From: Escherichia coli
Lineage (GTDB): Bacteria > Pseudomonadota > Gammaproteobacteria > Enterobacterales > Enterobacteriaceae
DNA length: 64,000 nt
Reading direction: 5' to 3' (one strand)
NCBI RefSeq assembly: GCF_045037415.1
Contig: NZ_CP173438.1
The position numbers are program-made. Position 1 is the stretch's first letter; each line of letters begins with the position of its first letter. This document shows positions 39,401-42,400 of this stretch, one piece after another.

Positions 39401-42400
39401 GCACTGGCTTCCGCCGGATTTGGCGTTATCGCCACCTTTATCACGTTGTTTTATGACGCTAAAGGTTGGGACGGTGCGGCTTTCGCGCTGACGCTGTTTA
39501 GCTGTGCGTTTGTCGGTACGCGTTTGTTATTCCCTAACGGCATTAACCGTATCGGCGGCTTAAACGTGGCGATGATTTGCTTTAGCGTTGAGATAATCGG
39601 CCTGCTACTGGTTGGCGTGGCGACTATGCCGTGGATGGCGAAAATCGGCGTCTTACTGGCGGGGGCGGGGTTTTCGCTGGTGTTCCCTGCATTGGGCGTA
39701 GTGGCGGTAAAAGCGGTTCCGCAGCAAAATCAGGGGGCGGCGCTGGCAACTTACACCGTATTTATGGATTTATCGCTTGGCGTGACCGGACCACTGGCTG
39801 GGCTGGTGATGAGTTGGGCGGGCGTTCCGGTAATTTATCTGGCGGCGGCGGGACTGGTCGCAATCGCGTTATTACTGACGTGGCGATTAAAAAAACGGCC
39901 CCCGGTGGAAATACCTGAGGCCGCCTCATCATCTTAAAACTTACTGAATAACCAGCGTATTAATGATGTTTTCTGCGGTGGTCTGTGCTTTTTGCTGATT
40001 GTCAGCGGGCAGCGTAATTTGCATGGTTAGCAGTTGATTACCCACGTTACCCAGAATAACGGAAGAGTACGCCGTCTGGCCTTTCGCGGAGATAATGCTG
40101 TCTAACTGCTGCATTTTGTGACCTTTCAGCTCAATGGCTTTATTGGTTACCACTTGCAGCTGCGGATCGCGGCTACGTTGCTGATCTTCCAGACGCTTCG
40201 CCAGCACCGCCAGATCTTCTTTCGGATCATCGCCCATGATGACGATGACTGCTTTCTGCCCGGTGGCGTCGGACCAGACATGCATGTTATTGGCCTGCGT
40301 TCCCAGCTTACCGCTCTGGTCGGTCATATCCGCTGGCAGCGAGAAACTTAACTTGCCATCAAGCAGGTTGACGGGATTCCCGGTCGCGTTACTTTCTGCG
40401 ACCGAACCCTGCGCCGTAGCGTTAGTGTCTTTATCATCACAGGCCGCAAGCCCCATAACCAGCAGGCCAATTCCGACATATTTAACCAGATTGCGCATTG
40501 ACTTCTTCCTTTCGATAAACGGCCATAACGGCTCATTCATCCATCTTATCACAACTCTGATAACGAACCTTTAACTCGCCTGCAAAGCGTTGATTTCGGA
40601 TTTATCTGCCAGTCTTTTCAACAGCATATTGAGTAATACGCCATACATTGGCAGGAAGAAAACGATACTGATTAACACTTTGAAACAGTAATCGACCAGC
40701 GCGATTTCCATCCAGTGTTCAGCCATAAAGGCATCCGGGCTACGCCAGAAGGCAATGAAGAAGAAGGCCAGCGTGTCGCTGACGTTACCGAACAGTGTGG
40801 ACGCTGTCGGTGCCAGCCACCAGTGACGACTCTGACGCAGGCGGTTAAAAACGTGCACGTCGAGGATCTGCCCCAGCGCGTAGGCCATGAAACTGGCGGT
40901 GGCGATACGGGCGACAAACAGGTTGAAGTGGGCGAGCGCGCCGAATCCTTGCCATGACCCCATATAAAACAGCGATGAGATGACGTAGGAGATCAGCAAT
41001 GCGGGGATCATTACCGCAAAGATGATGCGACGAGCCAGCGGCGCGCCAAAAATACGCACGGTCAGGTCAGTAGCGAGAAAGATAAACGGAAAGCTAAACG
41101 CGCCCCAGGTGGTATGAAAACCAAAAATGGAGACCGGAAGCTGAACCAGATAGTTACTGGAGGTGATCACCAGAAGATGAAATAACGATAACCAGAACAA
41201 CGCCTTATAGCGTTGCGTTTGCGAGAAAACGTTCATATTGTACCTTTTTGATTAACCATTGGGGTGAGGGAACCCAATACGTGCGACACGCTATTTTATA
41301 CGTGCTGACCCTTTTTTCGAGCCGCCGCATGATACTGCTTTACGTTGACAATGCAATGGTTAATTTTCACGCAATCGTTAACCTGGTTTGCTTACGGACT
41401 CACAGGGCGTAAACTAGCGCCGTTTTTTTATGTGATGAGAAGAAAATGACCGATCTCTTTTCCAGCCCTGACCACACACTCGACGCACTTGGCCTGCGCT
41501 GCCCGGAACCAGTAATGATGGTGCGCAAAACAGTGCGCAATATGCAGCCAGGTGAAACGTTGCTGATTATTGCTGACGATCCGGCGACGACCCGCGATAT
41601 TCCTGGGTTTTGTACCTTTATGGAACACGAACTGGTTGCTAAAGAGACGGATGGACTGCCTTATCGTTATTTGATTCGTAAAGGCGGTTGATGGGGGAAG
41701 ATTGGCTTCGATGCCGCCTTTTCCCCTCACCCTAACCCTCTCCCCAGAGGAGCGAGGGGACCGATCGCGCTCAATGTTGCGATCGGTTTGCCTTATTTCC
41801 TGCGCAACAGCCTTAACGCATTCGCCGTTACCAGCACCGTCGCACCGGTATCTGCCAGCACTGCCAGCCACAGTCCGGTCATCCCTAACAGCGTCGTGAC
41901 GAGGAAAACGCCTTTCAGCCCCAGCGCAATAGTGATGTTCTGGCGGATATTGGCGTGAGTGGCGCGTGCCAGTTCAATCATTTGCACCAGACCGCGCAGG
42001 TGGTTATGGGTTAATGCTGCATCGGCGGTTTCCAGCGCCACGTCTGTGCCGCTACCCATTGCAATCCCGATGGCGGCAGCTTTCATCGCTGGCGCGTCGT
42101 TAATACCATCACCGACCATCGCCAGCGGCGCATGTTGATTCAGCTCGGTCACCGCTTTGACTTTATCTTCCGGCAAGAGGCCCGCTTTAAATTCCAGCCC
42201 CAGTTCCCCGGCGATTGCCGCTGCTGCGCGTGGATTATCGCCTGTAAGGATCACCCCTTTGACGCCCAGCGCGTTCAGTTCACTGATAGCAGTTGCAGCA
42301 TCGGCGCGCAGGGTATCCTGCAACGCAATGACACCCAGCACGTCATCGTTACGTACTACCAGCACTACCGTTTGCCCGGCGCTTTCCAGTTCATTAATCA

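Follow-up and report, generated by a model that had tools for sequence, protein, structure and literature searches.

The genes tusA and zntA of Escherichia coli converge on a short intergenic gap, which in the genome analyzed here (RefSeq assembly GCF_045037415.1, contig NZ_CP173438.1) is 101 bp long and occupies positions 41692-41792 of a 64,000-nucleotide stretch, hereafter the window. The gap extends from the tusA stop codon (TGA, 41689-41691) to the zntA stop codon (TAA on the minus strand, 41793-41795), and an earlier note had described it as filled by a GC-rich, BoxC-like repeat or hairpin that probably acts as a transcription stop for both genes and marks a variable spot. The motif behind this description is the 38-mer cccctcaccctaaccctctccccagaggagcgagggga at 41723-41760. 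Comparison with the copies catalogued in E. coli K-12 MG1655 shows it, at the level of sequence, to be the core of one slightly decayed copy of the repeat known as BoxC, PIT or TMECO, lying on the minus strand and orthologous to K-12 TMECO no. 16 (Table 1). The element, its family and exactly this copy between tusA and zntA are already known in the literature, and what we add concerns the state of the copy, its history and the part it may play in transcription.

Table 1. Features in and around the tusA-zntA gap. Positions are those of the window; an L number before a position names another locus.
Feature	Position	Strand	Basis or remark
tusA coding sequence, 81 aa; left gap boundary	41446-41691	+	open reading frame (ORF) list; tusA annotation in matching E. 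coli records
Left spacer part, locus-specific	41692-41722	+	inverted repeat; flank comparison; 30 of 31 bases the same in Escherichia marmotae
BoxC/PIT/TMECO core, type 'A mm'	41723-41758	-	one mismatch to the published pattern
C block CCCTCGCTCC	41758-41749	-	
Loop 1, TCT	41748-41746	-	
G block 1 GGGGAGAGGG	41745-41736	-	
Loop 2, TTA	41735-41733	-	
G block 2 GGGTGAGGGG	41732-41723	-	
Allele-defining substitution	41751	+	A in the window (T in the minus-strand C block), G in K-12
Conserved BoxC tail, GACCGATCGCGCTCAAT in plus-strand reading	41759-41775	-	ten-copy comparison; adjoins the C block
BoxC arms TCCCCTC/GAGGGGA	41722-41728 and 41754-41760		
Perfect 9-bp inverted repeat ACCGATCGC/GCGATCGGT, separate from the BoxC arms	41760-41768 and 41779-41787		left arm within the BoxC tail; right arm locus-specific
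Terminator-like site, tusA direction	41758-41799	+	terminator scan; stem 41758-41789 with core ACCGATCGC/GCGATCGGT, then T-rich GCCTTATTTC
Right spacer part, locus-specific; carries the right hairpin arm	41776-41792	+	alignment of structural alleles and outgroup species
zntA coding sequence, 732 aa; right gap boundary	41793-43991	-	ORF list; annotation of matching records
Allele B spacers read	L132:453-720; L133:453-712		BoxC of L133 without about 8 nt of its third block
102-aa hydrophobic ORF between tusA and zntA	L134:597-905 (E. coli 23CRST031); L135:667-975; L136:1501-1809; L140:1501-1809		

Identity and anatomy of the repeat

The BoxC repeat is said to go back to Bergler et al. 1992 and Bachellier et al. 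1999, and the PIT element reportedly to Hoyne et al. 2000. Holder et al. (2015), whose TMECO is the element earlier named BoxC or PIT, define it by the pattern CCCTCNCCC-N3-6-GGGNGAGGG-N3-GGGNGAGGG and count 23 strict copies in K-12 MG1655; BoxC is also quoted as a 56-bp repeat with 32 copies in E. coli and, as cited by Holder et al. (their ref. 46), it was originally named at envM (fabI). In their Table 1, copy no. 16 is the sequence CCCTCGCCCCTCTGGGGAGAGGGTTAGGGTGAGGGG of type "A mm" at 3,608,684-3,608,719, between zntA and tusA, and their Supplementary Table S2 gives its distances as 33 nt to zntA and 31 nt to tusA; the K-12 annotation, with zntA ending at 3,608,649 and tusA at 3,608,751, agrees with this placement. 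We retrieved the K-12 copies by their published coordinates and aligned ten copies to find the boundaries of the repeat. The core in the window is identical to no. 16 at 35 of 36 positions, and the copy matches the one on the fepB side in K-12 at 39 of 41, while the K-12 copy adjacent to fabI has the same 36-mer as no. 16. The copies at phnL-phnK, cstA-ybdD and aaeR-tldD have CCCCTCACCCTAACCCTCTCCCC-N4-GGGGCGAGGGGACCG in common, the 23-mer CCCCTCACCCTAACCCTCTCCCC being identical in the first two, and all copies inspected are intergenic. The suggestion that the motif is BoxC-like is thus borne out, its K-12 orthologue being TMECO no. 16.

Within the window the repeat is single copy: the 22-mer CCCTCACCCTAACCCTCTCCCC and the three-block pattern, each with up to three mismatches allowed, both occur once, and in none of 100 shuffles, so the match is no coincidence. 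In the genome as a whole the motif is not unique. A blastn search with the 101-bp spacer (E <= 10 across the whole 28-Gb collection of 5,426 complete E. coli genomes) hit 91,560 places in 5,425 of the genomes; the median per genome was 18 and the highest number 34, in line with a dispersed, intergenic family of about 22-33 copies in K-12. Units of the consensus for repetitive extragenic palindromes (REPs; GCCGGATAAGGCG... / GCCTGATGCGACGC...) are absent from the gap of the window.

A GC-rich repeat with hairpins does lie in the gap, but it does not fill it, since the part derived from BoxC, approximately 41716-41775, makes up some 60 of the 101 bp, a size consistent with the published 56 bp. 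The extent of the unit follows from the ten aligned copies, in which a tail of the approximate form gCGCnCGGnC(G/A)GTC stands directly 5' of CCCTCGCCCC, carrying the repeat about 16 nt past the C block; on the other side it continues for only a few bases (GAAAA/GAACA), and the TTTTC at about 41716-41722 matches this weakly conserved GAAAA flank. Farther left, CCGCCTTT (41714-41721) is complementary to AAAGGCGG near the end of tusA (41680-41687), and the fold of 41676-41726 is no better than that of shuffled sequences (z -1.05). A candidate remnant of an inverted partner copy in the left 30 bp of the gap (TGATGGGGGAAG...) was rejected, the resemblance to the spacers of real doublets amounting to a single 7-mer. 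Compared with shuffled sequences, the full gap gives a better fold on each strand (z -3.9 and -3.0), and the core is predicted to form an RNA hairpin of -16.8 kcal/mol on the tusA strand and -23.6 kcal/mol on the zntA strand.

The single difference between the core of the window copy and that of no. 16 is the substitution at 41751, which turns the C block CCCTCGCCCC into CCCTCGCTCC and puts a T-G mismatch where the stem had a C-G pair. The strict pattern, which the K-12 allele fits, has no exact match in the 64-kb window and one match with a single mismatch, CCCTCGCtC. The window copy, assigned by homology and orthology, is a mutated member of the family ('TMECO mutated' in the terms of Holder et al.), and with A at 41751 its core hairpin is predicted to be weaker by 1.5-3.6 kcal/mol, the range covering the two strands and RNA versus DNA parameters. 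This is not a rare variant. Counting 30-mers that cover 41751 plus unique flank, in an A and a G version, in the 5,426 complete genomes, we found 2,940 (54%) with the window allele and 1,841 (34%) with that of K-12. By this count, the majority allele of E. coli is shown to have a sequence outside the published triplex-forming pattern.

Spacer alleles, ancestry and relatives outside E. coli

The claim that the site is a variable spot proved correct, even though the window and K-12 have the same structural allele and differ by four substitutions within the 101 bp. Longer spacers were found with a 406-bp query across the gap; four of them were read, and the counts were obtained with junction-specific queries. 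Three structural alleles together account for 5,417 of the 5,426 genomes. The commonest (allele A), which has BoxC only and is 101 bp long, is that of the window and K-12 and occurs in 4,562 genomes (84%). In allele B (260-268 bp; 537 genomes, 9.9%), found among others in ATCC 11775, Nissle 1917 and ST1193, BoxC is followed by a bacterial interspersed mosaic element (BIME) of three REPs, and allele C (485-555 bp; 318 genomes, 5.9%) has one or more REPs and an ORF of 102 aa. REPs adjoin BoxC in alleles B and C as well as in other Escherichia species. BoxC itself is partly deleted in some B genomes and truncated in one form of allele C, while in the other form (L135) the tail is retained although the core has been lost.

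The 102-aa ORF is confined to Escherichia. It lies between tusA and zntA also in E. marmotae and Escherichia sp. E4742, and the version in Escherichia albertii has a premature stop. A Pfam search assigned it to no family and its annotation reads hypothetical protein only; its substitutions are, however, concentrated at third codon positions, and because of this bias we consider it probably a real gene for a small membrane protein, one that has been deleted in 94% of E. coli, the window included. The presence of this ORF between tusA and zntA in the other species shows, as far as the comparison of spacers can, that the long form is ancestral in Escherichia and that the 101-bp gap is a deletion derivative that lost the BIME and the ORF. 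The ancestral spacer continues after CGGTTTG with the REP/BIME and the ORF, and this part is deleted in the window.

The BoxC copy is likewise shown by its orthologue to be older than E. coli. E. marmotae has the copy, with 5 of 38 core positions different from the window, two of the five in the third block, against 1 of 31 in the left flank; E. albertii has only a BoxC remnant, and Escherichia sp. E4742 has a REP in place of BoxC. Although the numbers are small, nothing in these differences would suggest constraint on the triplex-forming blocks. Taken together, the strict pattern missed by one base, the allele counts in E. coli and the divergence of the core relative to the flank show, within the reach of such comparisons, a copy that is slowly decaying.

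The three-block pattern also occurs elsewhere. A pattern scan of species genomes, which yields at least 120 loci from Mitsuaria chitosanitabida and three metagenome-assembled genomes (MAGs) and is not a taxonomic census, gave more than 140 occurrences among the matches listed for the betaproteobacterium M. chitosanitabida NBRC 102408 (L013-L119). The unit there is CCCTC[T/G]CCCGCTTGCGGGAGAGGG-N3-GGGGTGAGGG followed by TCTTCGGGC, and, again among the matches listed, all 27 doublets (27/27) have the (-,+) layout with complementary outer flanks; their inner spacers, 30-272 nt long, are variable and often consist of tandem repeats, and to us these doublets look like miniature inverted-repeat transposable elements (MITEs) or REPINs. 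The pattern was also seen in the Methylomirabilota MAG JACPAT01 (L005-L012), a phylum other than the Proteobacteria from which Holder et al. described it, and in a Ca. Contendobacter MAG (L020-L022), where copy L021 comes very close to the sequence of the E. coli type 'A mm'. At the center of the C block, T (with which the stem is perfect) and G (which mismatches both G blocks) have comparable frequencies in K-12 and, among the matches listed, in Mitsuaria.

Transcription across the gap

A shared transcription stop, the function put forward for the motif in the earlier note, finds no support in our analyses. Downstream of the BoxC stem there is no U-tract in either direction: the sequence there is ACCGAUCG on the plus strand and UUAGGGUG followed by GAAAAGG on the minus strand. 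Other BoxC copies lie between pstA and pstB and between phnK and phnL, that is, within the operons pstSCAB-phoU and phnC-P, and since the phnK-phnL case is a doublet, BoxC must be transcribed through in both orientations. As summarized by Holder et al., Hoyne & Maher (2002) found that PIT elements act neither as promoters nor as terminators and leave RNA polymerase unaffected. The Term-seq tables of Adams et al. 2021 (PMC7815308) contain no 3' end in K-12 3,608,650-3,608,750, and the SMRT-Cappable-seq supplements name neither tusA nor zntA. What Adams et al. do report is a Rho-termination region antisense to zntA, at K-12 coordinate 3,607,955 (-). This corresponds to about position 42487 (+) of the window, roughly 0.8 kb beyond the tusA stop and 0.7 kb inside zntA, and would fit transcription on the tusA strand that reads through the gap.

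The sole terminator-like site in the gap is the stem at 41758-41789, and it is terminator-like in the tusA direction only. On the plus strand its RNA folds with -20.1 kcal/mol (z -3.95), and the T-rich tail GCCTTATTTC extends into the stop codon of zntA; on the minus strand the fold reaches -15.9 kcal/mol and is followed by CCCCUCGC, with no U-tract. On these predictions, tusA has a plausible, though probably leaky, candidate for an intrinsic terminator, half of it built from the BoxC tail, and for zntA the scan indicates no canonical intrinsic terminator in the gap.

Overall, we think it likely that the repeat between tusA and zntA is an old, passive and slowly decaying BoxC copy that is transcribed through and has no dedicated role in termination. 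BoxC would then be a structure-prone repeat carried along passively as part of 3' untranslated regions (UTRs). Transcripts of tusA would most likely stop, inefficiently, at the adjoining hairpin of 9-12 bp with its U-rich tail (41758-41799), the left arm of which happens to be the BoxC tail, and those reading through would be ended by Rho within the antisense strand of zntA. Transcripts of zntA, for their part, would probably owe their ends to Rho, to collisions between converging polymerases or to being trimmed back as far as the hairpins.

Several points weigh against this explanation. The result of Hoyne & Maher is known to us through the summary by Holder et al. and may not cover the tusA-zntA copy, and the missing Term-seq end may merely reflect low expression of tusA and zntA in the conditions used. 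The Rho signal could instead stem from an antisense promoter inside zntA. The long persistence of the copy, from before the split of E. coli and E. marmotae, could mean weak selection for some function, and only a handful of sites underlie the contrast in divergence between core and flank. For annotation, the practical consequence is that the motif should be labeled as a BoxC/PIT/TMECO copy and not as a terminator, the candidate for a tusA terminator being the adjoining hairpin; as a discovery its value is small, thirty years of work on the BoxC family having given no function in gene expression.

Around the gap, the promoter scan of 41300-42100 returned no site, and the scan of 40000-44500 with the Rfam 15 covariance models, on both strands at E <= 1, returned no match. 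An ORF of 65 aa at 41702-41899 (+), which begins with TTG and runs through the repeat into antisense zntA, was judged to be a mechanical ORF and set aside. A separate terminator-like hairpin (GGCGTAAACTAGCGCC then GTTTTTTT) stands at 41406-41431 (+) in the region between the divergent yhhQ and tusA, where only about 15 nt separate it from the downstream start codon of tusA; it could be a leader or an attenuator, or mark where a short, unannotated transcript ends.

Alternative explanations and known systems

Of the alternatives, the non-B DNA structure proposed by Holder et al. (2015) survives best, although we regard it as unlikely to account for this locus. According to their proposal, the blocks, when single-stranded, fold into an intrastrand purine-motif triplex that stalls the polymerase and causes deletions and rearrangements. 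By inspection, G block 2 of the window copy mirrors G block 1 in a way that would allow a triad at all ten positions (8 G.G:C, 1 T.A:T and 1 A.A:T), but the underlying Watson–Crick stem has only eight pairs, with one T-G and one G/A mismatch as its two imperfect positions. While the consensus oligonucleotide formed a stable triplex in vitro and TMECO loci were more variable than control loci, the same study saw no signal in double-stranded DNA or in DMS (dimethyl sulfate) footprinting in vivo. The spacer does have three structural alleles, with copies that have partly or completely lost the core; what the large indels take out, however, is the BIME and the ORF, repeats that are recombination-prone in their own right, while BoxC persisted, and 84% of the genomes have one and the same allele. 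That BoxC has been so long-lived while the BIME and the ORF were lost, and that the majority allele is off the pattern, argues against strong selection for triplex formation here.

Less probable still is a role in stabilizing the 3' UTRs, under which the hairpins of BoxC and of the adjoining stem would, much like REPs, shield the tusA and zntA mRNAs from 3'-to-5' exonucleases with no part in termination. The position directly 3' of both genes would suit this role, as would the predicted energies of the core hairpins and of the adjoining stem on the two strands; the Term-seq data of Adams et al. 2021, however, list no stable 3' end in the gap, the majority allele weakens the hairpin, and many BoxC copies lie 5' of genes or within operons.

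We attach a similarly low probability to an origin by insertion, in which the copy would be what is left of a small MITE- or REPIN-like element, mobile but non-autonomous, that can no longer move. The conserved tails outside the triplex blocks, the inverted doublets in E. coli, the 27 Mitsuaria doublets with complementary outer flanks (among the matches listed) and the presence, absence and replacement of the repeat at the tusA-zntA site among Escherichia would all fit such an origin. Against it, no target-site duplication and no clean empty site were found, the allele without a core (L135) keeping the tail and having different adjoining bases, and no associated transposase is known. Holder et al. 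(2015) saw no link to mobile elements either, and found most TMECO copies at the same loci across strains. A more specific version, namely that BoxC/TMECO units form the termini of a non-autonomous element of REPIN or MITE type whose spread depends on some enzyme yet to be identified, is suggested by the conserved tail, the doublet layout in E. coli and Mitsuaria and the recurring alternation of T and G in the C block, and we offer it as a long shot. If true, the tusA-zntA copy would be an immobilized, decaying insertion, the tail of which was co-opted as half of the tusA terminator hairpin.

A shared bidirectional intrinsic terminator, in which the BoxC hairpin, alone or with the adjoining one, would stop polymerases coming from both tusA and zntA, can appeal to the convergent genes being only 101 bp apart, to the folding of the gap on both strands and to the terminator-like score of the adjoining hairpin on the plus strand, but we hold it to be very unlikely in view of the U-tracts missing after the BoxC hairpin on either strand and after the adjoining hairpin on the minus strand, the copies inside the pst and phn operons, the lack of terminator activity of PIT elements as relayed by Holder et al. 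and the Term-seq tables, with no 3' end listed in the gap and a Rho region some 0.8 kb downstream on the tusA strand.

Our preferred explanation, the passive and decaying BoxC copy, can finally be set against the systems that the locus resembles. Intrinsic (Rho-independent) terminators, the bidirectional ones included, share with it a GC-rich stem-loop directly 3' of two convergent genes; the BoxC stem differs from them in having no U-tract on either strand. With H-DNA and other triplex-forming mirror repeats it has in common a purine-rich mirror repeat, formed by G blocks 1 and 2, beside a complementary pyrimidine block, but a triplex of the BoxC family has been shown just for isolated single strands of the consensus sequence in vitro. 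REPs and BIMEs are, like BoxC, short, GC-rich intergenic repeats of palindromic form, frequently placed between convergent genes, and their sequences are unrelated to BoxC. For REPs, a mobilizing enzyme, RAYT, is known and roles in mRNA stabilization and protein binding are documented; to our knowledge, BoxC has, unlike REPs, neither a known mobilizing enzyme nor such roles. The closest comparison remains with the catalogued BoxC/PIT/TMECO elements themselves, with which the window copy shares the three-block layout, the TTA of the second loop, the central G/A mismatch of type 'A mm' and the tail, differing from its K-12 orthologue no. 16 by an additional C-block substitution, as a result of which it no longer fits the strict published pattern.

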